The notes beneath the pieces are model-generated. The model was given only the letters and a program-made list of their open reading frames with translations. It had not been told where the DNA came from and ran no database searches. The translations under genes were made by a program, and so were the position numbers. Shown piece after piece: positions 3,936 to 30,492 of a stretch of DNA of 64,000 bases. The stretch's first letter is position 1. Each line of letters begins with the position of its first letter. The DNA lies in IMG/VR virus record IMGVR_UViG_3300045988_076436; one strand, written 5' to 3'. The stretch is from a virus.

Positions 3936-3938
3936 GGG

Positions 3939-4780: not shown

Positions 4781-4803
4781 TATAGAACAGAACCGTGATT
4801 TTT

Positions 4804-9407: not shown

Positions 9408-12400
9408 CTATTGTTGCTTTCCGTTCCTTATCTCATTCACGGCATCCACAAGTTCTTTCTTCTTCTCATTGAGTTCGGCTTCAAGTTCCTTACGTTCATC
9501 GTCCCTCAAAGTCTGGTCTTTCAACTCCTCGTTGATGTCGTCAATGTCACCCGAATACTCCTCGTAGGTTTCCAAGATGCGGTACTCTGGCGAGTTGTTC
9601 AGCCATGCTATCTTGTCGGCATAGTCAAACACTCCGTCTGCCGTATCGTTCTCGTAGTGGTTCAACCGGGTGCGCAACCGCTCGCTTTCGTTCTTTATTC
9701 TGAAATACTCGTTGTTGATTGCACGGTACTCTGTACGCTCGTCACCACTCTTGACAAGTCGGTTCAGCAACAGGAAACTGCGAGGGTCATACTCTCGGTC
9801 GCCAAAGACGGTTTCTCCCATCTTTGTGAGTTTGTCAACCGTTGACGATACTCCGCCAAAGACACCGTTCAGCAGGTATTCCACCTGCGCAGGGTTTATG
9901 TCAATCTTGCCGCTTGTATAGGCATCGCCACCAGTGGCTTCGTTCAGAGCCTTTGAGAGTCCTACCAAATATTTGTTGGCACTCTTGTACGCCTTAGTCC
10001 ATTCGGGCATTTCCTTGTTGAAAGGAGTGTCCTTGTATATCGGCATACCAGTCCATCCCTCGTTGGTCATTACTTCCGCAACAGGCTTGACGGCACTCGG
10101 AATGAAAGACTTGAAGCTGCCGCCTCCCTCCATGAAGTCGATAGGCAACATCTGGCTCACTTGACTTGCAATTTGATTGGCAAGTTCACCTGCGGTGTAG
10201 TGTTCCTTGCCGCTCATCGCGCTCACCATCAGCTCACCCATGCCATACATGGCTCTGTATTCCACAGGGAGAGGAATGCTTATCCACGACTCTTTCATGC
10301 CCGGTGTGCGGAATACGATATTGCTCCTGCGCACATATTCGGGCAAGTTATAGTAGTCGTTCTTGTTCTCATCGTCTCCATCATCACCGCCAATTCCTGC
10401 CATCAATGCACCGAGCAGGAACATTGTGGCGGCTCCTGCAACCGCTTTCTTCGGGTGTCGCTTTGCTTGCCGTCCGAAGTTGGTTGTGCCTTGTATGGCG
10501 GCATTCCAGAACACATAGAAACTGCGGCCAAGTCCCGAGGTGAATGCGGCTACATTGCCGACCTTTTTCTGACCATTCGCACCCATGAACTTTGCGCCAC
10601 TGCCTTTCTTGTTGAAATTCACGCTTATCTCCTTGGCATCATAGATGCTGCGGTCAATGGAGCGTTTCATCTGCCGTGAGGTCATAAAGGCGACAAAACG
10701 TGCGCAGTTCTCCACTGCCCGGTTGTACTCGTCAAGACGCTCACCCAACAAGTCCCAAGCCTTTCTGACTGGCATCTGTCCGCTGTTCTTCTTCAACTCA
10801 CGCTTGATGTCGTTCTTGCGCTGCTCAATGTCACGGATGTTGGCATAGCCTGTCTCACCGCCATTCATCATGAACTGGTGGAACATCTTTTCCGTATCAT
10901 CGTTCATGTCAAGTGTGCCATTGCGCAACTTGGCAAGGAGCGACTTCATCTTGGCAGGGTTCACCTTGGCAAAGTTCTTGTGGAAACGCCATGCGTAGTT
11001 TGGGCTTTCCTTTACCCATACCATTGTGTTGGCATAGAGCGCATCCCTTACAAAGTTCGACACCACGAAGTCGGGGTTTCGTGTGGTGTAGAATGCGGAC
11101 AACTGGCGGTTTATGGTTTCTCCCACACGCAGGATTGCACCGATTGCGCCCGATGTGTCATTGTCGGGGTTGGTCTGTCCGTTCAACGCTTGCGCGGCTC
11201 TCGGGTTGCCATTGATGGTGAGGATGATGTCCCTGCCGTTTCTTTTCACAAGCACTTGGTGCTGTCTGAGGTCGCGGCTCTCCAAGACTCTGTACGGAAA
11301 TTCGGGATTGTCCTTCTGTTTCTTGAAGTGCGCGGGGTCGTTATATGCGGCTTGCCGTATTGCGTCCTCGAAGTCACGCATCTTGCGCTCCACATCGCGA
11401 GGGCTGTCGTCCTCCTCAATGCGCTCCGTGCCTTGCAGGTCACCCGAGTTGATGGGTTGCCACTCGTCAGTCGCGTCATTGTGCCACAGCCACAAGTCGC
11501 TCACACTCACAAGGTCGCTCGGGTGGTTTAGCGCGAAGTTCAAGAATTTCTGCTTCACTAATGTATTGCGGTTGCCCTGCATTATCGCGCTCTCGGCCAT
11601 CGCCTCCATGTTGGCAAACGGGTCGTCGGCCTTGCTCTTGCGTCCCTTGGCGGTTTTGATGGGAGCGTTGAATGCGCTGTGCTTGTCAGAAAGATAGGCA
11701 TACGCCTCGTCACTCGTCTTGTCGTCAAAGCCACGCAACGGTATGTAGTTCTTGTACATTCCGCTGATGTCATTGTATGTGGCCTTGCTGATAAGTCCGC
11801 TCTCGTAGGTTTTCAGCAAGGTGGCATAGTTCACTGCGTTCACCTTGTCCCACAAGTCGTTTGTGGCGTGCCGTCCCTCGTAGTCCGTTACCATGCGCTG
11901 TGCCTCATTCTCCGCGTCCACAACATTGTCAGTACCTGTCAAGGCGGTAAGTCCTGCATAGTCGCGTCCTCGGTTCTCAAAGTATAACTCCTCCTCACGG
12001 TCGTGTTTGCGCTGCTTCACATCGTCAAGCGTGTCTGCCGCATCTTGATCGAGTGGGTCTATGGCTGCGGCTCGCTCAGCCTTGCGCAACTCTATCCTAA
12101 ACTCCTCACCAGCTTGCTTCTCGGCTGATCTGCGTGCCATTACCTCGTTACGCTCCAATCCGTGCTTAGCCATCATATAGTCAGTCAACTCAGCACGCTC
12201 GTCCGCTGTCTCAGCAAGTTTCGCCACCTCCTCAAGCATAGGTTTGAACAATGTCTGCGCAAATGCTGTACACTCTGCTTGGTTTACAGAAGAAAGGCGA
12301 TTTTCACCAAGATAGGCGTTCTCATATCCAGCTACGTCCTCTATGTAAGCCTTTTTGCCCTCTGCTTTGAGTATTGCGTCCATAGCCTCTTTCAGACCGA

Positions 12401-15400
12401 GCATACTATCTTGCAGAGCCTCCTGCGTCTGGTACATTCCACGGCTCACACGCTGCTCGTATATGTCACGTGCCATTGCCTTGTTGTACTCCACACTGTC
12501 GCCATCGCGGAACTTCATGCCCCCATCGGGGTCGGTCTCTGGACTATGGTTGTCCTTTGCAAGTCCTGTCTTGTCGTGATACTCGCCAGTATCAAGCAAA
12601 TCAGAAATACTTTCTGCAATGGCACTCAATGTTCCCGCAGGTGCTTTGCGAATATCCTCTTTGAAGTAAACATACTCGTTTGCAAACTTCCCATCTTCTG
12701 CATGAAATCTGTTAGGACTTCGTTTAGTCTTGATAACAATGCTTTCGACAGGCTCATCACCGACATTTGCTGCGTTGATGTTATGGTTGCTCACTCTGAT
12801 AGTAAACACCTTGCCATTGGGCGTTTCAAATGAGCCATACCCACTTCCAGTGCTGCCTCTTGTCAGACCAAGACTATTGCTTAAATCTGATATAAAGCCC
12901 TTGCTGTCAGTTGTATTCTTGTATGTTTTTGCAACATTTGCAAGTGCTTCTTTGGCTTTCTCACGTTTTTGCTGTACCTTTGCAGCGTGTTCAACATCAG
13001 TAGGCTCTAAGTGCTTAAGTGCTGCCTCATTGAGTTGGGCACTTTTTTTATGTCCATCACTGAACTTCGTCTCACCAAACCCTGTCTTTCTCCGCATTAC
13101 CTCGGTATCGGCTGCGTCAAACACATCGGGCTTACCTCCGTTCTTTTTGCGCTTGTATGCTTCGTGCAGGACAAACGCCCATTCCTTATCACCCCATTTC
13201 TTCTTGCCAGGGATTTTCAATCCGTCAAGCAACTTTTGAAGGGCTTTTTGGAGCATGGACTTCAACTTGCCCCAGAACGTAAGTTCCTCGGCACTCATCT
13301 TCTCAAAGCCTTTCTCACCGATGCGCCCTGCAAGGTCTGCTCCGTATTCCTCCGTGGCATCACGTTTGAACTGCTCGCGCTTCTTGCTTGCCTCGGCATG
13401 AGCCTCTGCCATGTCCGCATAGTAGGAGGCGTTGCTGTCCTCGCCATTGGCCTCATGCTCCTTGCGCTTCTTCTCGCGGAGTCTGTCCACCTCGGCATCG
13501 TACATCTTCTGCGCCATGCGGTCAATGCTGTTCCGTATCTCGTCTTTCGACACGCGGTAGAGTTCATCGAGCGCATTGTTCAGTTTCTCCTCTTCGGGGA
13601 ACAGCACACGCAGTCCGTCATGCCCCACAACCTCATGGATAAACGTGTTCTCCACATCTGCCATGTTTGCGTTGTTCGGCACAACAATGGTTACTTCACC
13701 AGTCAAAGGATTAAAGCTGCCTTTCATTCTGCGCTGGCGTGTACTCGGCAATGCGGCCACCTCCTCGTCCGTGCGGATAATGCGCACAGGTGTATGGAGC
13801 CGCTCTGCCAACTCGTTCACACGCTCGGCCATCGCATTGTTCATCGCCTCCTTGGGTTCGCCCACCCACTTGCCAGACATCTTGGCATTGATGCGTGCAA
13901 TGTCCTCGTTGGTCATGAATGGTGCGTGTCCCTCGCGTCCGGGGATAACATCACGGTTCTCCATATTCTGCCTGTCAAGTGCAAGGCTTTCTTCGGGAGT
14001 GAGTTCTTTACCGTCCAACTCAAAGCGGTAGCCCATCTTCTCCAACTCTCTGCGCACCTGCGGCACAAAGCGGTTGTAGTCGCGGTGGCTCTTCAATGCC
14101 TCACGCTTGCCGGGGTGTTTCTTCCAATATTCGTCAATGAGTTTGGCTTCCTCCTCGCGCGTGAGCACTTTGTCTATCTTGCTCCAGCGTGAGAGGTAGA
14201 GCGTGCGGCCGTTGTTCCACTGATGCGCTCCTGTGGGCAGTAGGGCATAGTCGGTATGGAATGGTTCGTCAATCTCCGATTTCGGAATGAGGCTGCGCAC
14301 CACAACAAGGTTCGGACGCTTGTACGCCTCGCCAAACTGGGTGTTAAGCGGTGTCTCGATGGCATGGTCATAGGGGTCGTATGCCGCCCACAAGCCTTTG
14401 TCCTCGGGGTTCTTCTTCAAGAAGTATTGCAGCTGTGCGTCCTTGGTCTTGGGTTTCACGAACTTCAATCCGTCATTTATCTGCAACTCTGTGGTTTTCT
14501 TGCCGTCCACCACGATGTAGCCGTTCTTGTTGAGTTCGTCCAACTTGCGCTGCTGCTCCTCGGTGAGTTCCACCTTTGGAGGTGCAGAATAGTTCCAACG
14601 TCTGCCTTCCAATGTTCTGCGCTCGCCTGTCTCGGCATCGGTAAATGCCATAGGTGAACCCAGTGCATCATCCTCAAAGGCTTGCACATTGCGATATACA
14701 GGCACAAGCTCGCTGTCGGGCAATGCCTCCAATTCCTGCGCCTTTGGATCATCGTCCTCAAGCAAACGGAACTTGGTCTTGTCTTCCGTTGTATCGTCCT
14801 CATCGTCTGTGACAATATCGGTTGCTGCCTCCACACTTGCGTCCATCTCGGCATACTTCTTTTCCTTTTCTGCCAACTCCTGTTTCATGGCCTCGGTGTA
14901 TTCCTCCAACTGACGCTCGGCTTCTTCGAGTTCCTTACCAAACTCAAACGGTTTGCCCTCACGTGCTTTCAGTTGTTCCAACTCTGATTTGCCACGTTTC
15001 GCCATGCGTGCGGCAATGTCAAAACGCTCTGCGAAGTCCTTACCTGTGATTACATTCTCGGTGATGTCCTCCACGGCATTGCGCAAGAGGGACTGCTTGA
15101 CAGGTATGTCGGTCAGTCCGAGTTCGGGGCATGAGTAGGTCATTTTGCGGTGTACCTCGGCAAAGAGCGAACCGCCATTGTTCACCGTTTCACGCGACAT
15201 CTCGGTCTTGACAACGAAGTCATAACCGCCCAACGACAGGGTGAGCGTGTTGGTCTGTGCCGAATTGCCGGGGTTCTCTTTCATGGCCTTTACCGCATCG
15301 AGGATTTTCTTGTTGTGTTCCTTGATGAAGTCTGCCATGCCGTCCACGGAAGTGAATTTCTGCTTGCCGATGGTTATGTCCGTAAACTTGCCACCAGGGA

Positions 15401-21400: not shown

Positions 21401-24400
21401 ACCACGGACGCACCTTGTCGCCAAGTGCCTTTACCATCATGGAGGCATAGTCACCGAATGACTCGTTGCCACGCTCCACCATTGCCATAGCCAGACGCTG
21501 ACCAACGGACATGAGTTTCTGACGCTGCTCTGCGGTCAGTTCTTCGGGATCACGGAACTTCAGCCCTGCATCGCCCTCGTCTGCACCAATGCCGAGAATA
21601 TCACGGATGTCATTCATCAATCCGTTCATTTCCTCGTCACTCACCTCATACTTAGGCTTTTCTGCCTCCTTGGTCGGCTGTTTGGGTTCTTCCTTGGTTG
21701 GCTCTGTCGGCTTTTGTTCTGTCACATCGGCCACCTCAACCTTGTTGGCAGGTTTCTTAGCTATGGTTTTCTTCCGTGTTGCAGGCTTCTTCGGCTCTAC
21801 GGCATCGCGCAACTCTTGTGCGGTCAGTGGCTGTGCGTCTGCCACGGCATCGGCATTGCCCACCATGTCTGCTGCTTTCTTCGCGTCCTCCTCACTGCGG
21901 AACATCCAGCCTCCGCTCTTGCGGTCTTTCCAACCGCGTGCAGGAGAAAAGCGTCCCTCGCCAAGTCTCTCCTTGGCAAATTCACTTACGGCACGCTCTT
22001 GGTCGGCTGTCAGTGCGCCATCAAACGTAAGCAGGGATACATCGCTCGCCTTACCTTTCTTATTAGTATAGGTGGTAGGAGTGATGGTATAAGCTGCATT
22101 GTCTGCATTTCCCGTTGTCGGTGCTGCCGTATCTTCCTTTGCAGGAGAACTTGCCACGGTCTCTTTCTTCACCCCGGCATACTCCGCAAACGGCTTGGTC
22201 TTGCGGTGGCTGCTGTCTATCCACTTCTCGAAATCTTCGAGGTTCGTTGTGGACACGATAATCCTGCGCCCATCTTCCCAACCTTTCTCATAGTTGGCCA
22301 GATAGTCGCTCTTCGCCTCGTCCATGTCGTTAAAGCCAAGCATCACCTTGTGCTCGTCAAACGTGCCATCGGGATTGTACTGGTCCACCACATACACCTT
22401 GCGCCCGTTCCAACCGTCAATATCATTGGAGAGGAACACATCTATGTGGTCTCCGTCCACGCCCACTGCACCACGAATGTAGCCGTAAGTGTTGTTCATC
22501 TTGCTTTCCCATTGTTTGCCGTTGGCATCCGTGCCTTTGCGCACACTGCCCTCTGGCTGCTCAATGGTAATGTCGAACGTGCCGACCTGCACATGACCTT
22601 TCTTGTAGTTGCCGGCCTCTTTCTGTGCCTCGGTGGGTTCGGTGTTCACATCGGCTGATGCGGTCTTTATCTTGGCTGACAACGGCTGCTCCGCTCCGTC
22701 AAGGTGTTTGACAACCTCTTGGAGGTCGCCAAACTGCTTGCCGTCCACCTCATAGTAAGTACCGGGATAGTTCTTGCTCTCGTCTGGAGCGTCCACTTTG
22801 ATTACTTCCTTGCCGTCAATGAGGAGTTTCTGCTTGTAGATGTCGCCATTTGCGCTTGGCTCTGTCCACTCCTCATCGGTTTCGGTAATGCGCTTGCGCA
22901 ATGCCTCTTCCTCTGCCTCGGCAAGTGTGTCAGTATTTGGTTCTTCTGCCTGTGGAGTATTATCCTGCTTGGCAGGTTCGGTCTCGGCTACTGCTGGCTG
23001 TTGAGGCTCTGCACTGCGTTGTACAGCATCCGCAGTTTGTTCAGTTGCCTCGTTTCCTCCACGCTGTTCTGCCTCGGCTTCTGCGGTGCGCTTGCGTTCT
23101 GCAATGGCTGCATCGACGAGGGCTTGTTGTTCTCTTGGTGTTGCATTTCTGAATAATTCATTTACGTCATTAAGTATTTGTTCCTTGGAACGTACATCGC
23201 CAGTAAACATATCCAACTGACCACCAGCTGGAGCTACTGCGGCACTATTATAGGTAGAGAGTACTTTGCGCAGGTCACTTGGCTTACCGCTGTTCAGTAT
23301 GTCGGCAAGCATCAATACCGTGCCGTCCGTCACTCGGCTGTCTCCGTATTCATCATCAAACAGACCTTGCTCCCTGCCGAATGGCGACACAGGCATTCCG
23401 TCCTTGAAGATGTCGGGGTGTGCGCTCTTGGCTCTTGCCACGAGGTCAACGGCTGCACCCAACTCATTGCTTAGGTCGTAGCCACTTTTGGCGAGTGTGC
23501 GGTTATGGGCTATCTCGTTCAAGCCCATAATGACCGACTGGCGCAATGTGGGTGTACTGATGATATGGCGCACGGCATCGGGCGAAGTCTGAAAGACCTT
23601 GCCTATAAGCGTGTTCTCGATAAGTTCCTTTCCTGCTGCCGACAACGAATTGCCTGTGCGCATTTCGGGCAGCTGCATCTCGTTGATGACTCCTGCACCG
23701 AGCAACTGACTGATAGCCGAAGATACTGCCTTGTCGTCTGCGTAGTAGTCTGAAAGGCGGTCAAAGCGGCTTATGTCATTGGTGATGCTCGTGAAAACAT
23801 TGTCGGGGACAATCTTGCCGAGTTTCACCGCGTGCTCTGGCTTGCTCTGTTTCTTCTGCTGTTCAGCGTTGAAACGTGCGAATGTGGTTGCATCGTAGGG
23901 CAGTTGCTCGTCCGGGACAAACACCACACGCGGATGTTTCATACCGTCTATCTGCTCGGGAGTGAAACCGTACATCTGTCCGAACTCGCGCAGATGGTCG
24001 ATATACGCCTTGTCTGTTCCCTGCTGAGCTGCAATGTCGCCCGACATGGTGCGGTTGTTGCCCGAAAGCACTACACCGTCCTTGCTCACGATGACAGGCG
24101 ACTGCAAGGCGCGGCTGTCGTAATTGTTGGCAATGTCCCTCACTATCCGCTGTGCGTCCGTGTCGCGCTTGTAGTCGCGGTCGTTCACGCTCTCTCCGTT
24201 CTCGTCAATGGGGAAACCCTCGGTCGGTTCAAAGGCGTTGTTGATGTCGTGGCTTGCTGACGCGGCTCCTGCCTCGGTGAGGACGTAATGCCCACGAATG
24301 GTAGAACCGTCCGCAAGGGTGAGTGCGTTGGGATTGCCCTCCACCTTGGCGGCACCGTTCCACTTGGCCTTTATCTTCGGGTTCACGGCATGAGTGCCTA

Positions 24401-27400
24401 CCTCGGCTTGCTCGGCAGCTTTCTGTGCCGCAATGCGTTTCTGCTCCCCGACCTGCGCCACGGCTGCATCGTGCATCTGCTTGTCGCGCTCACGTTGCTC
24501 TGCCTCACGCTGTTCACGAATTGCACGCTTACGCTCGTTCATAAGGGCGTAAATCCTCGACCATGCGCCCAGTGTCTCCTCTGCCTCCGCCACTTGTGCG
24601 TTGTACTGCTCCATGGCGGCATTGTAGTTGGCATCGGCCTCCTGCTGTGCCTTGACCATCGCCATAGGCGAACCTTTGAGGGACGGTGCTTTCTTGGTCG
24701 GCTGTTTCTTCTTCAGCGCATCGAGTGTCTTTTGCGCTTGCTCCACCTGCGCATTGACAATGGCGGTGGTGTTGGCCTCGTTGCCGCCTGTAACCTCGTT
24801 GAGCGCGTCAAGGGCAGTCTCCTTGTCGGCCTTCTCAAACATGGGTTCGCCAGTCTCCTCATTAAGAGGAACACGCTCCAGTGCAGTCGGCTGGCGGTTG
24901 GCCTCTTTCCACTGCACGCCTTGCGCTTCAAGTTGGTGCTGGGCAAGCTCATTTCCTCCACGCGCCATCTGTACAAGTTCTTCAGTTGTCGGAGAGGCAG
25001 GAGCAACAACATCATTGTCTTGCGGTGCGGAATTATCTGAAGCCTCCTCGGTCGCATCCGCATCTTCGGCATATTCTCTCGTCCATACCGGATTACCATC
25101 CGCATCATTAATGCTCTCGACCATATTCTCAAACTCCTCGACAGGGATAATCTGCACACGCTTTCCGTTTAACGGCTCGTCTGTGCGTATCTCTACACCG
25201 TCATCGCTGATATTCTGCACCTCGCCATGAACGTTTGCACCATCACCGTCAAGGAGTGTAAAGGTGTCATTCACGCCATATTGTACACCCTCGAGCGTTT
25301 TTTGTACACTTTCGCCATCATTCTGTACATTTTCATCCGATTTTGGTACGCTTTCACCATTTTCCATACCACCAAGCACGGCCTCATGCTCAGCTTGAAT
25401 GTTGGCATAAGCCTCGTCAAGTTCGGCTTGTGGGTCAATGGCATCACCGAGATTGAAGATTTGGTCGGGACTGGTAAACTTGTATTCGCCTGTCTCGGCA
25501 TCGCATATCACAATGCTTTGGTCGGAGTTCTGTGTGTCTATGCCTGTACCATCGGGAAGTACTGCGACATTACCTTTTACAATGTACACAGGCTTGTCGT
25601 CCACCTTCATGGTAGCTGGTTGCACCATGCCGTTGTCCTTGTGGGTGTGTCGCTCCACATTGGCGGCTACCTCCCTGCGCTTATTCTCCATCGCATCGTT
25701 GGACGCATCCTGCACACCGTCCATCGCTGCCTTGGCATTGATGTAGTAGAGTACCGCATTCTGCTGGTCTTCCGTCAGTTCGGGGTCGTTGGCCAATGCC
25801 CACGGATTATCCTGTATCTCGGCCATGCGCATTTCTGCGTCCGTGCCGAAAGCGTCCTCACATTCCTGCAAGGCTTCTTTCATGCGAATGGATATGGCAT
25901 CAATATCGGCTTTCGCGTCCGCGTCTCCTTGCTCCATTTTGTCCCACAACAGGCGAGACTGGTCGTAAACGGCTGAGGCTCCTGCCTCCTCGTCCGACAT
26001 GGGTTGCTCGGCTTCCTTGCTTTGCTCCGGGAACAACCGCTCTATGTAGTCCTGCACAGCAGCCTTTTCAGGGTCAGTACGCTTGCTCGGCTCTTTTTTG
26101 ATGGCCGCGTCCACATCTACGCCTGTCTCTTCCTTGATGGCTGCACGGATAGCCTCTGGACGTTCTGCGTCTGCCATGCCTCTGTTCTCTTCCATGAACT
26201 TGTCAATGGCATCGACCATCTGCCCATAGTTGGCGATTGCGTCCTTGTCGCCCTCCTTTGCAGCTTGGTAGTTGCGCTTGACGGTTTCGGGGTCAGCACC
26301 GGGGGCAACGGCTTCAACAGCTGCGTCCCACACCTTGTTGTCGGCTTTAGCCTCGGTGTAACGCTCACCTACATCAACGCTGTTGAGTTCGGCCTGTCGC
26401 ATGATTTTGTCCTGCTCCCTCTTGGCTGATGCCTCGTCTGCAAAGCGTCTGTTCGTTACGACCTCGCCATTGGCTGTAACGGACTTCACGAAGATATTGC
26501 CGTGTTCGTCCTTTTCGGTGGTGTACCCGGTAACAGTACCCATCGGCAACTGATGCCCGGTGAGGATATAATATGCCTTGGCTCTTGCGCTCTGGCTCAC
26601 ATTCGGGTCTTGCATGAGGCGTTCCATAGTCTCGTAACCGTCAAACTCGGGGTGTGTCTTGAGCCACTGCTTGCCCAAATCCTCAACCTCGGCTTCGGGA
26701 ATGTCAAAGTTCATTACCTTTCCGTCCGTGGTTGTCGGCTGTTTTGCCTTGGCTTTGGGCTGCTGTTTTGGTGTACGCGTGAAGAGTGCCGCAAGGTCGC
26801 CATAGCCGTACTTCTGCAACTCCTCGCGCTCTTCCTTGGTGAATACCATGTCGCGCGGACTTGCGTCCAACTGCTTACGCAACAATTCACCAAAACTCAT
26901 GCGGTTGTGATTGCGCTCCTGCATGGTCTTGGGGTTCTCGATAGGGCGCAACCCTGCAATAACCCTCGGAGCGGACTTCACCATGTGCTGACCCTTGAAA
27001 CCGAGCATCATCGCCATGTTGTCCGTCCACACGTCCCATGCACTGCGCTTATTGGGATTGCCATCTTCCAACTTGGAATTTTCAATCCATTCGGGAGTAG
27101 AGAAGATTGTCCCCTCGGCAACGGTTGATGTCGCAAGTTCTCCAAAACGGATACCTCCCTTACCATACACGTTTGATGTACTTTTTACCCATTTGTCGGC
27201 AACATTGCCCAACAATGGGGAGATAGTGCCAGTTACAGAGCCAAGGATAGTGCCTCGTCCTGTCGATTTCAAGATGTCCTCTGCCGAATATCCCTCATTC
27301 TCGCCTGTCTGCGGATTGATGTGTCCGCCATGCAGCCACTGGCTCTCGCCCTCCTTGATGCCCTCGTATGTGCCGAAGTTCAAGCCTCCACCAACCGAGC

Positions 27401-28754
27401 CAGCCACGACACGCCCTGCCAATGTGTTGCCGAACAACCGTGCACCCACATTGGTGGCTGCTTTCTTTGCAACAATGCGACCTCCTTCATTCAAGGCCAT
27501 CTTGCCGCCAAATGAGCCGATACCGCCCGAAATGTAGGTGGTAGGGTCGAAGAACATACCTGCTACCGTGCCGCCCACCTGCGCCCAGCGGTGGTTCTTG
27601 CCGTAGTCGCTCATGGCTCTCTCATACGCATCAAGGTCTCCAGTCGTTCCTGCCTCGCTCCGTGCCAATCCCTTGGTGATGGTGCGCAACAGGTTCATGT
27701 CGGCTGCGGTCTTGGCGAAGAACTCCAAGGTGCTCTTGGGCGTGTTCTTTGCCACGGCATACTTGTACACGGCATTGTCAGATAACTGACGAGCCATAGC
27801 CGATGCCGAGTTCTGCAACTGCTGTTCGCTTGCGGTTGGGTATTGCTTTTTCAACTGCTGATAGCAAGATGTGGTCATCTGCTTGCCGACACGTCCCCAC
27901 GCATTGTCCATCATCTTTTGCAGGTCAAAGCGTGTGAGGCGCGACACCTCATTCTTGTGCGAGTTGGTGGCTGCATCGACAATGTGCATCTCACGCCCTC
28001 CATGTAGCCACGGATTGCCACTGTACACTTCCTCCGCGTTCTTGTTGCGGTCGGCCGCATAATTCGCCTCAGCCTCTTTCCACAAGGCTGCAACAGCTGC
28101 ACTGGCTGGTTTCTGTGCCGCATCAACCTGCTGGTCGTTCATGTTAAGGCCAAGAGGCTTGCTTGTCTCCTGCCGAAAGCGCGTACTTTCCATGTCTGCC
28201 AACGCCTTGCTGCTATATCGGTTGCCTGTCGGTGTAATATAGGTCCGCTCGAACTTCTTTGTGCGAGGATTGTACTTTATACCACCTTTCTTTGTCTGAC
28301 CGAAGCCAAGCCCGAACCCATACTGCTTCATGTTCTTCATGCGCTCGTTGTTGTCGGCTATCATGGCTTGCGTCTGCTGCTGCATCTGCTGCACTTGGTC
28401 AATCATCGCCTGTCGCTGTGCCGGGGTGAGCGGCTTGTCTTTCTGCTGTGCAGGAGCCGCACTTGGCGCACTTGCAGGTTTCTGTTGCAGTGTTGCCGCC
28501 TGTGGCTTTTGCTGCTGAGGCTTGGGTGCAGGTGCGGTGTTTACCGCATGAAGTCCCAACCGTTTGCCAAACTCCTCATAGGTAGGACTATCAATGGCTC
28601 CGTCCGCTTTCAGTGCATTGTATAACTGCAAGCGGTTCTGATAGCCCTCCTTTCCGGGAGCAAGCATCTTACTGCGAAAATTCTCTCGGCTCTTGCTGAC
28701 TGCACCGTCTTTTTTCAGTGCGTCATAGAGTTGGTCTATTTTATCGTATGGCAT
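9408..28754 (-). CDS. Giant polyvalent virion/effector protein (6,448 aa): ParB-like nuclease, pyrophosphatase-like, N6-adenine DNA MTase, SNF2 helicase, HExxH metallopeptidase, membrane-like C-terminus
   Basis: Single uninterrupted frame. Motifs read directly: VLSGNNRTMSG (24039-24065, ParB-superfamily-like); GVDGDHIDVF (22444-22473, pyrophosphatase D-x-D-x-x-D signature-like); MTase motif I LEGSAGIG (19521-19544) and motif IV NVPF (19335-19346); helicase GTGKT (17403-17417), DEAH (16830-16841) and QRNGRILRQGN (15798-15830); HEVVGH (13620-13637); hydrophobic AGAATMFLLGALMAGIGG (~10384-10440). Confidence 0.85.
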   Translation of the reverse strand: MPYDKIDQLYDALKKDGAVSKSRENFRSKMLAPGKEGYQNRLQLYNALKADGAIDSPTYEEFGKRLGLHAVNTAPAPKPQQQKPQAATLQQKPASAPSAAPAQQKDKPLTPAQRQAMIDQVQQMQQQTQAMIADNNERMKNMKQYGFGLGFGQTKKGGIKYNPRTKKFERTYITPTGNRYSSKALADMESTRFRQETSKPLGLNMNDQQVDAAQKPASAAVAALWKEAEANYAADRNKNAEEVYSGNPWLHGGREMHIVDAATNSHKNEVSRLTRFDLQKMMDNAWGRVGKQMTTSCYQQLKKQYPTASEQQLQNSASAMARQLSDNAVYKYAVAKNTPKSTLEFFAKTAADMNLLRTITKGLARSEAGTTGDLDAYERAMSDYGKNHRWAQVGGTVAGMFFDPTTYISGGIGSFGGKMALNEGGRIVAKKAATNVGARLFGNTLAGRVVAGSVGGGLNFGTYEGIKEGESQWLHGGHINPQTGENEGYSAEDILKSTGRGTILGSVTGTISPLLGNVADKWVKSTSNVYGKGGIRFGELATSTVAEGTIFSTPEWIENSKLEDGNPNKRSAWDVWTDNMAMMLGFKGQHMVKSAPRVIAGLRPIENPKTMQERNHNRMSFGELLRKQLDASPRDMVFTKEEREELQKYGYGDLAALFTRTPKQQPKAKAKQPTTTDGKVMNFDIPEAEVEDLGKQWLKTHPEFDGYETMERLMQDPNVSQSARAKAYYILTGHQLPMGTVTGYTTEKDEHGNIFVKSVTANGEVVTNRRFADEASAKREQDKIMRQAELNSVDVGERYTEAKADNKVWDAAVEAVAPGADPETVKRNYQAAKEGDKDAIANYGQMVDAIDKFMEENRGMADAERPEAIRAAIKEETGVDVDAAIKKEPSKRTDPEKAAVQDYIERLFPEQSKEAEQPMSDEEAGASAVYDQSRLLWDKMEQGDADAKADIDAISIRMKEALQECEDAFGTDAEMRMAEIQDNPWALANDPELTEDQQNAVLYYINAKAAMDGVQDASNDAMENKRREVAANVERHTHKDNGMVQPATMKVDDKPVYIVKGNVAVLPDGTGIDTQNSDQSIVICDAETGEYKFTSPDQIFNLGDAIDPQAELDEAYANIQAEHEAVLGGMENGESVPKSDENVQNDGESVQKTLEGVQYGVNDTFTLLDGDGANVHGEVQNISDDGVEIRTDEPLNGKRVQIIPVEEFENMVESINDADGNPVWTREYAEDADATEEASDNSAPQDNDVVAPASPTTEELVQMARGGNELAQHQLEAQGVQWKEANRQPTALERVPLNEETGEPMFEKADKETALDALNEVTGGNEANTTAIVNAQVEQAQKTLDALKKKQPTKKAPSLKGSPMAMVKAQQEADANYNAAMEQYNAQVAEAEETLGAWSRIYALMNERKRAIREQREAEQRERDKQMHDAAVAQVGEQKRIAAQKAAEQAEVGTHAVNPKIKAKWNGAAKVEGNPNALTLADGSTIRGHYVLTEAGAASASHDINNAFEPTEGFPIDENGESVNDRDYKRDTDAQRIVRDIANNYDSRALQSPVIVSKDGVVLSGNNRTMSGDIAAQQGTDKAYIDHLREFGQMYGFTPEQIDGMKHPRVVFVPDEQLPYDATTFARFNAEQQKKQSKPEHAVKLGKIVPDNVFTSITNDISRFDRLSDYYADDKAVSSAISQLLGAGVINEMQLPEMRTGNSLSAAGKELIENTLIGKVFQTSPDAVRHIISTPTLRQSVIMGLNEIAHNRTLAKSGYDLSNELGAAVDLVARAKSAHPDIFKDGMPVSPFGREQGLFDDEYGDSRVTDGTVLMLADILNSGKPSDLRKVLSTYNSAAVAPAGGQLDMFTGDVRSKEQILNDVNELFRNATPREQQALVDAAIAERKRTAEAEAEQRGGNEATEQTADAVQRSAEPQQPAVAETEPAKQDNTPQAEEPNTDTLAEAEEEALRKRITETDEEWTEPSANGDIYKQKLLIDGKEVIKVDAPDESKNYPGTYYEVDGKQFGDLQEVVKHLDGAEQPLSAKIKTASADVNTEPTEAQKEAGNYKKGHVQVGTFDITIEQPEGSVRKGTDANGKQWESKMNNTYGYIRGAVGVDGDHIDVFLSNDIDGWNGRKVYVVDQYNPDGTFDEHKVMLGFNDMDEAKSDYLANYEKGWEDGRRIIVSTTNLEDFEKWIDSSHRKTKPFAEYAGVKKETVASSPAKEDTAAPTTGNADNAAYTITPTTYTNKKGKASDVSLLTFDGALTADQERAVSEFAKERLGEGRFSPARGWKDRKSGGWMFRSEEDAKKAADMVGNADAVADAQPLTAQELRDAVEPKKPATRKKTIAKKPANKVEVADVTEQKPTEPTKEEPKQPTKEAEKPKYEVSDEEMNGLMNDIRDILGIGADEGDAGLKFRDPEELTAEQRQKLMSVGQRLAMAMVERGNESFGDYASMMVKALGDKVRPWLKAFYGGLEYVPGYDKYALTTYEEVKAFDVENFDKPQHDVLAQADMIVEEGKAQTAADKANNELKAIRNEQRKENDKQTEADTAAVAEKAEATASEAETLAGTSSDRHELSAAAERVDDSLEEVNEQLALLGYYEADHVEKDFNEAYGYMRNAEKKAVNDAARLAGQLVDDLGLDLYEATHSDKTDKKGNRKAKPLAVANIAPAGGDVTIHLPLAEGRELYVNIQLEPAFDKGDTDRRGDNLEVTGIMCRVENPNASGNDRYGQNMWFAEDVTYDDLLKNVQRATYKYIPERGDVKKGEYKVGDKVQYSSDGNTWHDAVVAQPNELDGIRIDTGQAPVMWVNAHPDQLRHKTQAEPQNEDIFQKAERIAKEAREKNAAKATTEPTTTPASAEQPKPATKKKTSKKKVKPEQTVGNLFAGLFDETEENGLQRNDDAVRSQGVQADNSGQQQGLRRGERATRKAAAQESGRPDGGRGGQGTGTNRAESAGLHGLTEPKNTRNNHSERGADHAPTSVGGRIEANIKAIELAHELLESGETATSEQMSVLRQFSGWGGLGAAFSDGGYDWKQRERNKKIRELLGEEAYEQAVMSANSAYYTPAYVVDTLWDIAGKLGFKGGNILEGSAGIGNILGQMPTDMSERSDIHAIEIDGTSGGILSLLYPDAKVDIQGFEQTRIPNGSVDLAITNVPFVTGLRVNDTTGDSDLSKKFHNIHDFCIAKNVRKLREGGLGIFISSNGTLDNSKALRDWVVNEGGSDFIGAFRMNNKTFGGTTVTSDIIVIRKRVNGQKSANAIDVSTISGERTAEYQEPGARRAKPLSMDYNKYFIEYPDHMAGEMRFAFEEGDTFRPTSKGLYPVSGKDQGKMLTDFVQSFKEEERGSVETTDSHKTSYVNDASADGKRLGEMYLKDGKLVTAGFGGYYPLDVNDKKIKGHTKQECFTAYSAIKTALTDVMKYQTENEGDAGLRPLIDKLNKAYDNFVNTYGHFTKNNQLAWLRNDVDYPNVFSLEVYNEQGDGKGGVVKTYDKADVMKGRVVEKENEPHPENVKDGVVVSMFKNGRIDVPYIAGQLGMGEDAVKREIIESGLGFEDPTSRQMEVSYQYLSGNVREKLKQAEANNENGEYDKNIKALQEVVPMNIPAHLIDFTLGSSWLDPKLYNEYVKDRTDIDVQFTAAGGTWFMKELSYDVSGEKNRAMGVVSEMLKKTVMGHELIGAAIQNKTIVVSRTEKHYDGTTETITDREATSACAAKIDEIRQDFKDWARQKMQSDADLSARMEQEYNDRFNNYVPMSIPDDFVPEYFGGATHKFKMRPHQGKAIVRGTMQPLLLAHEVGTGKTFTLISTAMEMRRLGTAHKPMIVVQNATVGQFAASAKELYPNAKVLVLDDNDRNAEGRKNFYAKIKYNDWDMVIIPQSTLDKIPDSDERQMQFIQDKIDEKMLVLEQMREADTSGRDPITRRAEKELADLQAEMAALSDDISKKRTANNEKKKAVAKQNAAVKAQEMLDRRTDDVENFDDMGIDALLIDEAHEYKHLGFATAMQHGVKGVDPSYSKKSQGVYLKTQAVLEKNNGRNVIFATGTPISNTAAEIWTFMRYLMPKDTMKEYGIYYFDDFVRNFGNIQQMPEFKTSGRFEEVNRFAGYTNMPELVRIWSSVSDTALTKEQTELVKKIPEMEGGKAQDIYLPQTRALRSVMKYVRDELKRFDEMSGKEKKANSSIPLTMYGIAQRAAVDARLVQVDAEDDPRSKTNEAVRQTLRSLKETNDYKGTVAIFADNYENKRSGFNLYEDIKRKLIEQGVPANEVVVMKAGMKIKQKLDIFDKVNRGEVRVVLGSTATLGTGVNIQERLHTLIHLDAPNRPMDYTQRNGRILRQGNLHKKWGKPVRVLRFGVEDSLDVTAYQRLKTKGAIADSVMEGDRLMQDSMNNRVLEEEEDVFGDTVAQLSGSEYALLKNNAEKNVRKYESRRRQWEADQTYIHNAKPKLEGKIKTAEQRAEEANAHLLAVQKAFPGGKFTDITIGKQKFTSVDGMADFIKEHNKKILDAVKAMKENPGNSAQTNTLTLSLGGYDFVVKTEMSRETVNNGGSLFAEVHRKMTYSCPELGLTDIPVKQSLLRNAVEDITENVITGKDFAERFDIAARMAKRGKSELEQLKAREGKPFEFGKELEEAERQLEEYTEAMKQELAEKEKKYAEMDASVEAATDIVTDDEDDTTEDKTKFRLLEDDDPKAQELEALPDSELVPVYRNVQAFEDDALGSPMAFTDAETGERRTLEGRRWNYSAPPKVELTEEQQRKLDELNKNGYIVVDGKKTTELQINDGLKFVKPKTKDAQLQYFLKKNPEDKGLWAAYDPYDHAIETPLNTQFGEAYKRPNLVVVRSLIPKSEIDEPFHTDYALLPTGAHQWNNGRTLYLSRWSKIDKVLTREEEAKLIDEYWKKHPGKREALKSHRDYNRFVPQVRRELEKMGYRFELDGKELTPEESLALDRQNMENRDVIPGREGHAPFMTNEDIARINAKMSGKWVGEPKEAMNNAMAERVNELAERLHTPVRIIRTDEEVAALPSTRQRRMKGSFNPLTGEVTIVVPNNANMADVENTFIHEVVGHDGLRVLFPEEEKLNNALDELYRVSKDEIRNSIDRMAQKMYDAEVDRLREKKRKEHEANGEDSNASYYADMAEAHAEASKKREQFKRDATEEYGADLAGRIGEKGFEKMSAEELTFWGKLKSMLQKALQKLLDGLKIPGKKKWGDKEWAFVLHEAYKRKKNGGKPDVFDAADTEVMRRKTGFGETKFSDGHKKSAQLNEAALKHLEPTDVEHAAKVQQKREKAKEALANVAKTYKNTTDSKGFISDLSNSLGLTRGSTGSGYGSFETPNGKVFTIRVSNHNINAANVGDEPVESIVIKTKRSPNRFHAEDGKFANEYVYFKEDIRKAPAGTLSAIAESISDLLDTGEYHDKTGLAKDNHSPETDPDGGMKFRDGDSVEYNKAMARDIYEQRVSRGMYQTQEALQDSMLGLKEAMDAILKAEGKKAYIEDVAGYENAYLGENRLSSVNQAECTAFAQTLFKPMLEEVAKLAETADERAELTDYMMAKHGLERNEVMARRSAEKQAGEEFRIELRKAERAAAIDPLDQDAADTLDDVKQRKHDREEELYFENRGRDYAGLTALTGTDNVVDAENEAQRMVTDYEGRHATNDLWDKVNAVNYATLLKTYESGLISKATYNDISGMYKNYIPLRGFDDKTSDEAYAYLSDKHSAFNAPIKTAKGRKSKADDPFANMEAMAESAIMQGNRNTLVKQKFLNFALNHPSDLVSVSDLWLWHNDATDEWQPINSGDLQGTERIEEDDSPRDVERKMRDFEDAIRQAAYNDPAHFKKQKDNPEFPYRVLESRDLRQHQVLVKRNGRDIILTINGNPRAAQALNGQTNPDNDTSGAIGAILRVGETINRQLSAFYTTRNPDFVVSNFVRDALYANTMVWVKESPNYAWRFHKNFAKVNPAKMKSLLAKLRNGTLDMNDDTEKMFHQFMMNGGETGYANIRDIEQRKNDIKRELKKNSGQMPVRKAWDLLGERLDEYNRAVENCARFVAFMTSRQMKRSIDRSIYDAKEISVNFNKKGSGAKFMGANGQKKVGNVAAFTSGLGRSFYVFWNAAIQGTTNFGRQAKRHPKKAVAGAATMFLLGALMAGIGGDDGDDENKNDYYNLPEYVRRSNIVFRTPGMKESWISIPLPVEYRAMYGMGELMVSAMSGKEHYTAGELANQIASQVSQMLPIDFMEGGGSFKSFIPSAVKPVAEVMTNEGWTGMPIYKDTPFNKEMPEWTKAYKSANKYLVGLSKALNEATGGDAYTSGKIDINPAQVEYLLNGVFGGVSSTVDKLTKMGETVFGDREYDPRSFLLLNRLVKSGDERTEYRAINNEYFRIKNESERLRTRLNHYENDTADGVFDYADKIAWLNNSPEYRILETYEEYSGDIDDINEELKDQTLRDDERKELEAELNEKKKELVDAVNEIRNGKQQ
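19925..20137 (-). CDS. Candidate embedded +1-frame ORF (70 aa) inside the giant gene
   Basis: The ORF-track entry is 19925..20152; the first ATG is at 20137 (MKQKKMDYNEMMMRYAPKGCKPTIVDNSKDYEEAKERLAKLLHKKVEDLTAAEEDKALAQIGLSPLDFMD). It has non-repetitive composition and G/C-ending codons, while the host frame here is an R/G/Q-rich stretch using A/T-ending codons. Speculative. Confidence 0.3.
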   Translation of the reverse strand: MKQKKMDYNEMMMRYAPKGCKPTIVDNSKDYEEAKERLAKLLHKKVEDLTAAEEDKALAQIGLSPLDFMD

Positions 28755-28758: not shown

Positions 28759-29994
28759 TTATAATCCTAATGCTTTTGTATTCTTATATGATGACCCCTG
28801 CTGCGGTCTCGGTGCTGGTTTTGTGGCAGGTTTCGCCTGTGGCTGCGCTGCGGCAGGTTTCTTCCTAATTCCGGGATAGAACACCTTCTTTGATGTTGTC
28901 TTCTTAGTATTCTTCTTCTCGCCCGTAACTTTACCACGACGCACCACATCGCTGTCTGTGCTGTCCGTTGTGTCAACAGTCACGCTATCAAGTGTTCCAT
29001 GCTGGCGAGCCTTGGTAATAGCTTCGCTTTCGGTCTTGGCATAATGCATGTTTCCGTTCTCGTCCCACCACTGGAAACGTCCACGTGCATTAGTACGATG
29101 TTCTTCAGCCGAAGCGTAAGAGTTAACCGCTGATGCATGGCTTGCTTCTGCCGATGCAGCCGCTGCCTTGCTACGGTTTCTCTCCGTGTTTACCTTAGCC
29201 TTGTAGAGGTCAGGAGCATTGTCTGCTTCCGCCTTTGCGGTAATGCCTTCTTGCTCGGCTTTCGTGGCCTTTCCTGCTTGCTCACGCAGTTTGTCGGGTT
29301 GCAATGCAGCAAGCCAACCGTGCTCCTCCTGCTCTCGCTGTGCCTTTTCCCTAGCCAGTTTCCTACGCTCCTGCTCGGCCTCCATTTCGCGGAGTGTCTT
29401 GGCTCTGTCGTTCTGTAGGTCGCCTATTTTGAGGGAATACTGCAAATACTTGTCGGCATTGGCCTCACGCTCGGCTTTGAGTTTGTCGAGCTGCGCTTGC
29501 AGCGGTGTCTGCTGGCTCATGGTCTTGTGGTCGTACATGTTGGGCGCACCTCGTGTCGTGAAGTAGAGGTTGCTCAACGCCATCAGACCGTCACCAACGG
29601 CTGCGATTATCTTCTTCGACTTCTCCCTGCGCTCGCGTTTCTTGCGCTCCTCCTCGGTTTCGGGCTTGGTTTTGTTGGCCGCCTCCTGCAATGCCGCTAT
29701 CTGTTGGTCGTAGCCCATGACGGCATCGGCATTGTTCTGTGGCGACACGCCCAAGCCCTTGTCGGCAGGTGGGGCGACATCTGTCTGCGGTGTCGGCTTG
29801 CTCTCTGTCGGTGCAGGGGCGTTCTCTCCGCTGTGCTGCTCCGTCCATGCCTCCGTACCTTTCGGTGCAGGTTCGGGCTGTGGAGGCTGCTCCGTCCATG
29901 CTTGCGTACCTTTGGCAGGTGGAGTGGTGTTGTCCGCTCCGTCCTGCTCTGCAAGCCAGTCGGCACTGCCTTTAGGTGGATTTCCTGTGCTCAT
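28759..29994 (-). CDS. Hypothetical virion-operon protein (411 aa), P/Q/A-rich ends and a coiled-coil centre
   Basis: ORF 4 nt upstream of the giant gene. It contains a 17-aa tandem duplication (KGTQAWTEQPPQPEPAP / KGTEAWTEQHSGENAPAP) and a charged helical core (REMEAEQERRKLAREKAQREQEE). Confidence 0.6.
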   Translation of the reverse strand: MSTGNPPKGSADWLAEQDGADNTTPPAKGTQAWTEQPPQPEPAPKGTEAWTEQHSGENAPAPTESKPTPQTDVAPPADKGLGVSPQNNADAVMGYDQQIAALQEAANKTKPETEEERKKRERREKSKKIIAAVGDGLMALSNLYFTTRGAPNMYDHKTMSQQTPLQAQLDKLKAEREANADKYLQYSLKIGDLQNDRAKTLREMEAEQERRKLAREKAQREQEEHGWLAALQPDKLREQAGKATKAEQEGITAKAEADNAPDLYKAKVNTERNRSKAAAASAEASHASAVNSYASAEEHRTNARGRFQWWDENGNMHYAKTESEAITKARQHGTLDSVTVDTTDSTDSDVVRRGKVTGEKKNTKKTTSKKVFYPGIRKKPAAAQPQAKPATKPAPRPQQGSSYKNTKALGL

Positions 29995-30012: not shown

Positions 30013-30492
30013 TTAGAACGGCATGGACGATGCCGCGCTTGCCACACCCTGCACGGCTCCTGCAATGGCTTGTGCCTTGCCTTGCTCGATGGCGTTGAGC
30101 TGGTTCACATACTCATCGTCCTTGGCTCTGTACGTCTGTTCTATCTGGTCTTTGCGTGCGTCCGCATTGACGGCAATCTGCGATGTGGCGTCTGCCAAGG
30201 CTTGGTTGTTGGCGGCTTTGGCCGCTGCCATACTCTCGTCCGTGCCACCCATCACGGCTTGCGCTCCTGCCGCCTGTTGGTTGCGGTTCTTGATGCTCTG
30301 CTCCGTCTGGGTGAGTATCCTCTGCGCGTCAGCCCTCTGTGTGGCGTCCTCGTTATACCTGCGGTCATACCAGTCTTGGTTGGCCTTGCGCTGTGCCTCG
30401 ACATTCTTCTTCATGCGCTTCATCGCCTTGCTCGCGCTGATGCCACCGAAGATGCTTCCTGCGGCTCCTACCGCTGCTCCTATCAGTCCCAT
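30013..30492 (-). CDS. Hypothetical protein (159 aa) with a glycine-zipper-like N-terminus
   Basis: First gene of the long minus-strand operon. It starts MGLIGAAVGAAGSIFGGISA, followed by a Q/A-rich helical region. Confidence 0.6.
   Translation of the reverse strand: MGLIGAAVGAAGSIFGGISASKAMKRMKKNVEAQRKANQDWYDRRYNEDATQRADAQRILTQTEQSIKNRNQQAAGAQAVMGGTDESMAAAKAANNQALADATSQIAVNADARKDQIEQTYRAKDDEYVNQLNAIEQGKAQAIAGAVQGVASAASSMPF

Follow-up and report, generated by a model that had tools for sequence, protein, structure and literature searches.

The stretch of viral DNA described here, IMG/VR record IMGVR_UViG_3300045988_076436 (64,000 nucleotides (nt); hereafter the window), is dominated by a single gene for a phage-type large polyvalent protein, to which we refer as the giant. 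The listing of open reading frames (ORFs) and the translation give one continuous frame of 6,448 codons on the minus strand, running from an ATG to a single terminal stop and occupying 19,347 of the 64,000 nt (30.2%), as had been claimed in an earlier reading made from the letters by themselves (the sequence-only reading). An open frame of this length cannot be produced by chance. Its GC content (0.51-0.55) is similar to that of the adjoining structural genes, and the product has a calculated mass of 718.8 kDa and an isoelectric point of 5.28. Each of the eight motifs quoted in that reading occurs once in the translation, in the order claimed: VLSGNNRTMSG at amino acid (aa) 1562, GVDGDHIDVF at 2098, LEGSAGIG at 3071, NVPF at 3137, GTGKT at 3780, DEAH at 3972, QRNGRILRQGN at 4309 and HEVVGH at 5040. 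The features of the gene and of its neighbours are collected in Table 1.

Table 1. Features of the giant gene and of the adjoining genes in the window
Feature	Residues (aa)	Position (nt)	Strand	Basis or remark
Whole giant gene, phage-type large polyvalent protein		9408..28754	-	ORF listing, translation, PHROG matches
N-terminal region, with Gly-rich segment at aa ~400-560	1-960	25875..28754	-	Largely lineage-specific
Conserved domain	~1000-1200	25155..25757	-	Occupancy map, alignment A6
DdrB-like ParB-superfamily domain, holds VLSGNNRTMSG	1483-1608	23931..24308	-	Pfam PF18763
Polyvalent-type InPase domain, holds GVDGDHIDVF	2042-2179	22218..22631	-	Pfam PF18823, E 1.3e-52
Optional P1 DarB-type cassette: methyltransferase, SNF2 helicase and C-terminal extension	2811-4654	14793..20324	-	Comparison, occupancy
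Gamma-class N6-adenine DNA methyltransferase domain	~2966-3260	18975..19859	-	Profile A4; motif I LEGSAGIG, motif IV NVPF
SNF2-family superfamily-2 helicase, GTGKT/DEAH/QRNGRILRQGN	~3755-4330	15765..17492	-	Pfam ResIII, SNF2-rel_dom, Helicase_C
Conserved HExxH domain, putative zincin-like autoprocessing peptidase	~4975-5230	13065..13832	-	HEVVGH at 5040
Swap slot upstream of C-terminal module, ~170-aa segment in the window	5241-5410	12525..13034	-	Comparison
Family-defining C-terminal module, ~1,000 aa, mostly alpha-helical	5411-6448	9411..12524	-	Contains Pfam LPD38
Only strongly hydrophobic, transmembrane-like helix of the protein	6104-6122	10389..10445	-	Kyte-Doolittle scan
Pfam LPD38 core	6131-6321	9792..10364	-	PF18857, E 7e-42
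P22-type portal protein		7388..9400	-	7 nt downstream of giant; Pfam P22_portal E 2.8e-44; PHROG 156 portal E 5e-97
411-aa protein		28759..29994	-	Directly upstream of giant, 4-nt gap; middle gene of three-gene unit
159-aa T7 gp14-like protein		30013..30492	-	First gene of three-gene unit; Gly-rich hydrophobic N-terminus

Domain organization of the giant

The protein was compared pairwise with the giants of three Bacteroides phages and with gp75 of phage Bcep22, and an occupancy map was drawn from 122 giant relatives of at least 3,000 aa, selected on the C-terminal module; percentages of relatives given below refer to this set. Together, these resolve a constant frame, comprising the domain at aa ~1000-1200, the inorganic pyrophosphatase (InPase) domain, the HExxH domain and the ~1,000-aa C-terminal LPD38 module, and a set of swappable cassettes, which in the window are the DdrB-like ParB domain, the P1 DarB-type methyltransferase and SNF2 helicase, and a small slot segment. 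Within the PHROGs, aa ~1885-5270 fall in a 4,647-position 'DarB-like antirestriction' family (PHROG 10089) and aa 5414-6443 in phrog_14770; an NCBIfam scan returned SNF2-type matches only, including one to a DrmD-like SNF2 protein. Three of the four Pfam families that the sequence-only reading had proposed searching for scored above their cutoffs, namely ddrB-ParB, InPase (E 1e-52) and LPD38.

The N-terminal 960 residues, for which no Pfam, PHROG, NCBIfam or PDB match was found, are shared by 5-23% of the relatives, falling to 5-10% for aa 200-900. More widely, a Pfam search of ten overlapping chunks at E<=5 gave no match for aa 1-1480, the methyltransferase, the HExxH region or aa 5241-5410, PHROGs at E<=1 gave none for aa 1-1400 or the aa 5241-5410 slot, and a single-sequence PDB search of aa 1-1480 returned noise only. 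Within this region, the domain at aa ~1000-1200 is present in 61-81% of the relatives and always lies ~700-1,100 aa from the N-terminus; 104 relatives match it, and its profile (alignment A6) has no PDB or Pfam match. It is followed by the DdrB-like domain, which scores 28.7-31.4 bits against PF18763 (cutoff 27.6), has a weak PHROG ParB-like match and occurs in ~40% of relatives. The InPase domain is found in all four Bacteroides-phage giants compared and in 55-66% of the relatives. It also matches residues 637-763 of gp19, the portal protein of Pseudomonas phage Pa193 (PDB 9b41; E 1.2e-23), which belong to the C-terminal part of that protein not resolved in the structure; in Pa193, the same domain is thus covalently tethered to the capsid-interior end of the portal.

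The DarB-type block is 68% identical to its counterpart in gp55 of BKO1-TP3, 27-30% identical to those in the giants of Bcep22, VvAW1, Pavtok and others, and detectably related to darB of P1/P7 (tblastn: 28.5% identity, E 1e-13, over 24% of the 1,801-aa query). It occurs in 17-19% of the relatives and is absent from both BS-TP4 gp3 and BF1-TP2 gp68: the former has, at the same place, a different N6_Mtase with a Strawberry-notch-type helicase, and the latter has ART-PolyVal and PBECR5 domains instead. The N6-adenine methyltransferase named in the sequence-only reading, which has no direct Pfam match, was recovered by profile search alone: a profile built from six homologous segments (A4) matches M.BseCI (4.7e-6), M.TaqI (1.3e-5), the EcoKI M subunit (7.7e-4) and BrxX (0.017). 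Motifs I and IV are conserved across these six segments. At motif IV, the window, BKO1-TP3 and the contig L008 all have NVPF, and more distant relatives have the canonical NPPF or NWPF; as the NVPF variant is conserved, it is probably functional. The SNF2 helicase assignment is upheld by ResIII, SNF2 and Helicase_C matches above the Pfam cutoffs, and a PDB search with aa 2900-4700 returned matches to INO80-type helicases only.

Downstream of the block, H5040, E5041 and H5045 of the HExxH domain are invariant in 194 of 195 homologous segments, and a second invariant acidic motif, ATEEY, places E5136 (E487 in alignment A3) ~95 residues further on. This domain is found in all four Bacteroides-phage giants compared and in 73-87% of the relatives. 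In the AlphaFold2 (AF2) model of the region, the core has block-mean predicted local distance difference test (pLDDT) values mostly of 70-92 and places the HExxH in a helix after a small beta-sheet; the last ~190 residues of the model are unreliable, MAFFT having spread the tail of the query over the C-terminal module. The sequence-only reading had named an HExxH peptidase here and proposed a search for MPTase-PolyVal; the searches do not support a recognizable MPTase, although the motif itself is invariant: there was no Pfam match at E<=5, MPTase-PolyVal included, no PDB match at E<=1 for a profile of the HExxH region plus C-terminal module, and no Foldseek match for the model. As no Pfam peptidase model, PDB profile or fold matches, the assignment to a peptidase is made at the level of the motif, and we describe the domain as a putative peptidase.

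Between the HExxH domain and the C-terminal module lies a slot with variable contents. The window's segment, without a Pfam or PHROG match, has an occupancy of 27-34%; relatives carry PBECR3 (L008/P0001), MuF_C (P0003) or LPD3 (P0017) at this position. The C-terminal module itself defines a very large family, with 6,201 protein clusters (at 50% identity) at E<=1e-3 and 2,172 at E<=1e-30, and it lies at or near the C-terminal end of the protein in nearly all of the best 150 representatives. It is present in 335 deposited phage genomes, mostly of ~56-67 kb, from phages of Vibrio, Ralstonia and Burkholderia and from Shiga toxin (Stx)-converting and other Escherichia phages; Bcep22 gp75 shares it (E 5e-36). 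A single hydrophobic region at the equivalent position, ~314-345 aa from the C-terminus, occurs in all five giants scanned (window, BKO1-TP3, BS-TP4, BF1-TP2 and Bcep22 gp75). The AF2 model of the module is mostly helical (pLDDT 81.6; predicted template modelling (TM) score 0.78), and a BFVD search with it gave 81 matches at E<=0.001, those listed being LPD38-type polyvalent proteins, with TM scores mostly of 0.4-0.7 and best values of 0.5-0.71. The module is autonomous: in the Bcep22-like contigs L010 and L011 it is a separate gene, and in Bcep22 gp75 it is fused. These two contigs also carry a ~160-aa ferritin/rubrerythrin-like gene (L010 9523-9999, L011 9513-10004) that overlaps both the SLT-methyltransferase-helicase gene and the LPD38 gene. 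The three genes sum to approximately the length of Bcep22 gp75, and these lengths suggest that a ferritin-like sequence lies inside the fused protein.

Continuity and length of the gene

Errors of sequencing or assembly might, in principle, have joined several adjacent genes in a single frame. Continuity was assessed in independent assemblies, close relatives being reached through the neighbouring 411-aa protein (93-98% identical). A 63.6-kb contig from another sample (L014) has an unbroken gene of 6,440 aa at the same place, and in a third sample 4,856 aa or more are encoded without a break before the contig (L012) ends. Moreover, cultured temperate phages of Bacteroides contain unbroken syntenic genes of 5,553 aa (BKO1-TP3), 5,391 aa (BS-TP4) and 3,633 aa (BF1-TP2).

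Some relatives are, indeed, called as two to four genes (L008, L009 and L005/L007), and the C-terminal module is truly a separate gene in some Bcep22-like phages, both of which might seem to favour an artefact. The homology, however, continues straight across every break. In L008, a Logan contig (ERR4562376, 9900-10010) whose C-terminal module is 87% identical to that of the window, an A-run (TTTGAAAAGCC) differs in length by one base and so splits the giant into 5,272 and 1,184 aa; this could reflect a slippery site, a mutation that truly inactivates the gene, or an error of assembly. L009, an ENA scaffold, shows three frame changes relative to the window protein (4900-5400 and ~10000), two of them ~450 nt apart and bracketing a 148-aa stretch at the start of the methyltransferase; this pair could represent compensating frameshifts or a low-quality assembly. 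L005/L007 have one frame change, inside the helicase. L005, a 6.0-Mb contig of Bacteroides ovatus (GCA_024788605.1), is a decayed prophage remnant: the giant, truncated to its last ~1,900 aa and bearing the helicase frameshift, is preceded by fragmented integrase genes, and an identical 1,644-aa product is found on several metagenome contigs. Since homology is collinear through each of them, these breaks are indels in one gene, whether real or due to assembly errors, and not gene boundaries. Sequencing and assembly errors, furthermore, tend to break frames rather than to join 6,448 codons, and 122 of 143 representatives of the family are at least 3,000 aa long. Given the independent unbroken assemblies and the frequency of giants in the family, we reject an artefactual fusion as highly improbable.

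Against the two closest relatives (L014/L012), the ratio of non-synonymous to synonymous substitution rates (dN/dS) is 0.04-0.26 in every 300-codon interval of the first 3,300 codons, and 0.10-0.16 over the unannotated first 1,480 aa; these low values indicate that the unannotated regions covered are constrained protein. Synonymous divergence (dS) varies between 0.005 and 0.6 over the length of the gene, pointing to internal recombination.

The sequence-only reading had called the gene exceptionally long, which does not hold within its family: 16 of the best 150 representatives exceed 6,000 aa and three are longer than the giant (6,460, 6,743 and 6,927 aa), the median for 143 newly returned representatives being 4,718 aa. 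A length of 6,448 aa is thus long for a phage gene but normal for this family, in which 4,000-6,900 aa is usual. All homologues returned by a word-indexed protein database were of 1,851 aa or less, whereas an exhaustive library contained many of 4,000-6,900 aa; the word-indexed database thus seems to under-represent very long proteins and could give the false impression of split genes. The notion that the gene is usually split was rejected, as the exhaustive library shows giants to be the norm.

A proposed role within the capsid

The sequence-only reading placed a polyvalent phage protein among virion genes, and both the Pfam domains and the surrounding portal, terminase large subunit (TerL), capsid and gp14-like genes bear this out. 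On the minus strand, the order is integrase, the 159-aa gp14-like protein, the 411-aa protein, the giant and the P22-type portal, the last three gaps being 18, 4 and 7 nt; TerL is convergent on the opposite strand, with an SU10-type capsid gene next. The portal does lie immediately downstream on the same strand, as that reading had it, but this adjacency is not general, having been lost in BF1-TP2 and Bcep22. Nor does the giant occupy a slot usually held by MuF-like head proteins, as had been suggested: the Pfam scans detected no Phage_Mu_F domain, and it lies upstream of the portal, whereas MuF genes are normally downstream. In this it differs from MuF/SPP1 gp7; only relatives of the giant carry the separate MuF_C nuclease-like domain. 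An origin in a conjugative element was rejected, as both the domain set and the gene context are of the phage type.

Published work on homologues bears directly on where such proteins are found. The 4,515-aa gp69 of JC1 was identified in CsCl-purified virions by 51 unique peptides, as were, likewise in purified virions, the two proteins encoded just upstream of it (PMC9144972). In phi24B, gp47 (2,811 aa, LPD38) is abundant in virion proteomics and invisible in cryo-EM maps, and its authors propose that it is a packaged ejection protein (bioRxiv 10.64898/2026.04.10.717836). In the Escherichia phage PTXU04, PTXU04_00025 (2,198 aa), whose only such domain is LPD38, is required for efficient infection. 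Packaging is thus supported for the homologues JC1 gp69 and phi24B gp47, and by analogy the giant would be packaged too.

On balance, we consider it likely that the giant is a capsid-internal protein of a temperate short-tailed phage, combining a carrier with its cargo. Judging from homologues, it would be made late, at the same stage as the portal, the 411-aa protein and the gp14-like protein, be incorporated into the procapsid and, when the phage infects, exit by way of the portal and tail. An essential function in incorporation or ejection would fall to the C-terminal module and its one hydrophobic helix, possibly as part of a trans-envelope conduit, and the enzymatic modules N-terminal to it would be active in the newly infected cell. 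There, the methyltransferase-helicase block may shield the incoming DNA from restriction in the manner of P1 DarB, the InPase and ParB-like domains may act on nucleotides or nucleic acids, and the HExxH domain may process the polyprotein into functional fragments, releasing the cassettes.

A number of observations weigh against this carrier-and-cargo role. The virion evidence comes from homologues outside the phages of Bacteroidales/Prevotella; the gp14-like match falls just below the Pfam cutoff, and no such protein was found upstream of the giants of JC1, Bcep22 and PA28. Pfam scans found no lytic transglycosylase (SLT/lysozyme) in the giant, unlike Bcep22-type giants and T7 gp16, and the model of the C-terminal module matches no PDB fold, including those of T7, P22 and N4-type ejection proteins, the Foldseek search having returned nothing but transporter-like matches without meaning (best E 0.8, TM<=0.14). 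The evidence for a peptidase is the invariant motif itself. Finally, a 719-kDa chain would have to fit in the capsid and pass through the portal channel.

The first of these points would also suit a protein that is not packaged at all, but acts late in the cytoplasm, methylating or remodelling progeny DNA or manipulating host metabolism, with its place beside the portal reflecting expression timing only. Enzymes of all three kinds, methyltransferase, helicase and pyrophosphatase, can work on DNA during its replication, and the window's separate SNF2 helicase and RecT show an investment in DNA transactions. Homologues are, however, present in purified virions of two unrelated phage groups, the domain set is restricted to polyvalent proteins of phage type and virion context, and the gene lies inside a head-gene operon with a gp14-like protein; a purely cytoplasmic role is therefore improbable.

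Somewhat less improbable, yet still unlikely, is that the giant is a scaled-up P1 DarB, a dispensable anti-restriction cargo that only protects incoming DNA, the LPD38 region being a mere packaging tag with no part in ejection. The homology of the methyltransferase-helicase block to P1/P7 darB and to 'DarB-like' giants would agree with this, as would the DdrB-like domain preceding the block in the same polypeptide (the gene order in P1 is ddrB then darB, which the domain order mirrors), and both PHROGs and GenBank label relatives as 'DarB-like antirestriction'. The distribution of the parts argues otherwise: the DarB block is confined to a minority of the 122 relatives, and lacking from two of the Bacteroides-phage giants, whereas the C-terminal module is in all of them; efficient infection of a laboratory host requires a protein that has LPD38 as its only such domain; and a constrained module of 1,000 aa is large for a packaging tag. 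The counter-defence cargo envisaged in the sequence-only reading may apply to the DarB-type block, but misses the most conserved part of the protein, the C-terminal module, which relatives tie to an essential, probably ejection-related role.

A more ambitious extension of the carrier-and-cargo role, which we put forward only tentatively and think rather doubtful, is that the LPD38 module forms the core of a distinct, structurally uncharacterized genome-delivery apparatus of a very large supergroup of ~60-kb short-tailed phages, doubling as a universal carrier of effectors. If so, the apparatus would work in this lineage with the gp14-like and the ~400-aa upstream proteins, and the supergroup would span Stx phages, Lessievirus, many Vibrio and Ralstonia phages, and Bacteroidales/Prevotella prophages. 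By recombination, phages would equip this carrier with one or another injected effector, methyltransferase-helicase pairs that are not orthologous being among those exchanged. It would then be the phage equivalent of polymorphic toxin systems, and in the window phage would send a 719-kDa chain through the portal.

Relation to known systems, neighbouring genes and host

Phage-type large polyvalent proteins were defined by Iyer, Burroughs, Anand, de Souza and Aravind (2017, J Bacteriol; PMC5512222); in their account, InPase, DdrB-ParB and LPD38 belong to the phage type only. All three are present in the giant, which also shares with the class the assembly of effector domains (2-15) in one polypeptide, the methyltransferase-helicase pair, the position of the gene among portal and capsid genes, and a putative peptidase domain with HExxH, proposed to act in processing. 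It differs in its length (6,448 aa against the family median of 4,718 aa), in an HExxH domain that does not match Pfam MPTase-PolyVal, and in its first ~960 aa and pre-LPD38 slot, which match no described LPD or effector family. As the class dates from 2017, Pfam and PHROG models exist and longer members are known, the giant, although large, is a rather typical representative of an established and very widespread family.

A closely similar arrangement is that of the cultured Bacteroides phages BKO1-TP3 (PQ571269; gp55, 5,553 aa) and BS-TP4 (PQ571277; gp3, 5,391 aa), in which a small protein, a protein of ~370-390 aa, the giant and the portal are syntenic, the same constant frame is found and the portal is 70% identical; in BKO1-TP3, the first protein of the unit is likewise 159 aa. 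Outside the DarB block, by contrast, identity is only 23-52%, the window's giant is ~900-1,050 aa longer, and the hosts are Bacteroides as opposed to the likely Prevotellaceae host of the window phage. A syntenic cultured relative carries the deposited label 'DarB-like antirestriction', and the paper on the cultured Bacteroides phage isolates does not discuss the giant gene.

The Lessievirus podophage proteins Bcep22 gp75 (4,602 aa) and JC1 gp69 have two parts in common with the giant, a methyltransferase-SNF2 block in collinear arrangement (28% identity) and the LPD38 module at the C-terminus; in these phages as in the window phage, the genome is of ~60-65 kb and the giant gene takes up 22-30% of it. 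Bcep22-type giants, however, start with a lytic transglycosylase, and their gene stands at the end of the structural module beside the lysis genes and not beside the portal; BLAST showed no homology to the InPase or ddrB-ParB domains in Bcep22 and JC1, and in relatives the locus can be three separate genes. The phi24B gp47/Stx-phage LPD38 proteins (~2,800 aa) and PTXU04_00025, also from ~60-kb podophages, share the LPD38 module (tblastn: 24% identity over ~62-86%) and supply the experimental basis for a packaged, ejection-related, essential role, but are much shorter, have other N-terminal domains (LPD5, LPD1 and MuF-C) and lack the DarB-type block.

P1 DarB (2,255 aa) similarly combines an N6-adenine methyltransferase with a superfamily-2 helicase, and its homology to the window's block is weak. 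DarB is packaged in the head and protects incoming DNA from type I restriction, its packaging depending on separate Dar/Ddr proteins (DarA, Hdf, DdrA, DdrB and Ulx). It stands alone, without LPD38 module, InPase or HExxH domain, whereas the window's block is one cassette inside a protein of 6,448 aa, in which the DdrB-like domain is fused in cis. General scans of the window's genes recognized no separate Dar proteins, no search aimed at DarA or Hdf having been made.

A parallel with T7 gp14-gp15-gp16 lies in the three consecutive genes of rising size, the gp14-like first product and the logic of ejected proteins. Neither the giant nor its C-terminal module, however, has sequence or fold similarity to gp15 or gp16, and the giant has no transglycosylase domain; the analogy is functional at most, and the gp14 signal stays below threshold and occurs in this lineage only. 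The 159-aa protein matches Pfam T7_gp14 with E 8.4e-6 and 26.2 bits (cutoff 27) over profile positions 5-161 of 187; two of three homologues match as well, and the match is graded weak in four further relatives. The 411-aa protein has homologues at the same position in BKO1-TP3, BS-TP4 and BF1-TP2 and more than 1,500 relatives, none with a Pfam annotation, and itself gave no Pfam, PHROG or PDB match (the single-sequence PDB search returning noise). A ~160-aa gp14-like protein, a ~400-aa protein and then the giant thus form a unit conserved in the Bacteroidales lineage. The genes upstream of the giants in JC1, Bcep22 and the Stx phage PA28 show neither a T7_gp14 match nor significant BLAST similarity to this unit; we therefore reject homology of their small, ~400-500-aa and giant gene pattern, the likeness being one of size and order only.

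Several consequences follow for how these proteins are viewed. The label 'DarB-like antirestriction' fits only a minority cassette, and the invariant part is a large C-terminal module without a solved structure, which published relatives link to virion packaging and efficient infection. Phages exchange the contents of the effector slots, even where the functional equivalents are not orthologous, and the constrained regions at aa 1-960, ~1000-1200 and 5241-5410 are candidate new injected effectors. The human gut commonly harbours such phages, and Shiga-toxin phages possess this C-terminal module too; given this spread, its structure or genetic dissection would explain a widespread step of infection.

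The source is a ~65-kb circularly permuted temperate phage, with Prevotellaceae probably the host family. The window covers ~64.0 kb of a genome of ~65.2 kb, ~1.2 kb being absent; its ends, 1-792 and 57941-63994, encode respectively the first ~240 aa and residues 645-2601 of a single ~2,600-aa gene, and the genome is therefore circular or circularly permuted. The two giant genes together make up ~40% of it. Genomic relatives of the 411-aa protein (L016-L024, integrated or binned) are mostly from Prevotellaceae, including Prevotella spp., Leyella stercorea and Prevotellamassilia timonensis (a 1.2-Mb contig); two come from bins assigned to Eggerthellaceae and Lachnospiraceae and are probably phage contigs that were binned wrongly.

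Elsewhere in the window, 36775-41746 (plus strand) encodes RecT, a PD-(D/E)XK-like protein and a further SNF2-family helicase, which, unlike the one within the giant, is a stand-alone protein of 501 aa. Two stretches, 34001-36000 and 44001-46000, have GC contents of 0.40 and 0.44, respectively, against ~0.53 elsewhere, and may represent recently acquired accessory genes. The second giant gene (~2,400-2,640 aa; 57815-63997 and 1-792, minus strand), without a Pfam domain and homologous to BS-TP4 gp14 and BKO1-TP3 gp44, carries at its 3' end the variable repeat of a complete diversity-generating retroelement: the reverse transcriptase (RVT_1) is encoded at 55302-56855 (minus strand), the template and variable repeats at 56893-57002 and 57848-57957 are 85% identical over 110 nt, and all 16 differences between them fall at a template T on the plus strand, that is, at an A on the coding strand.

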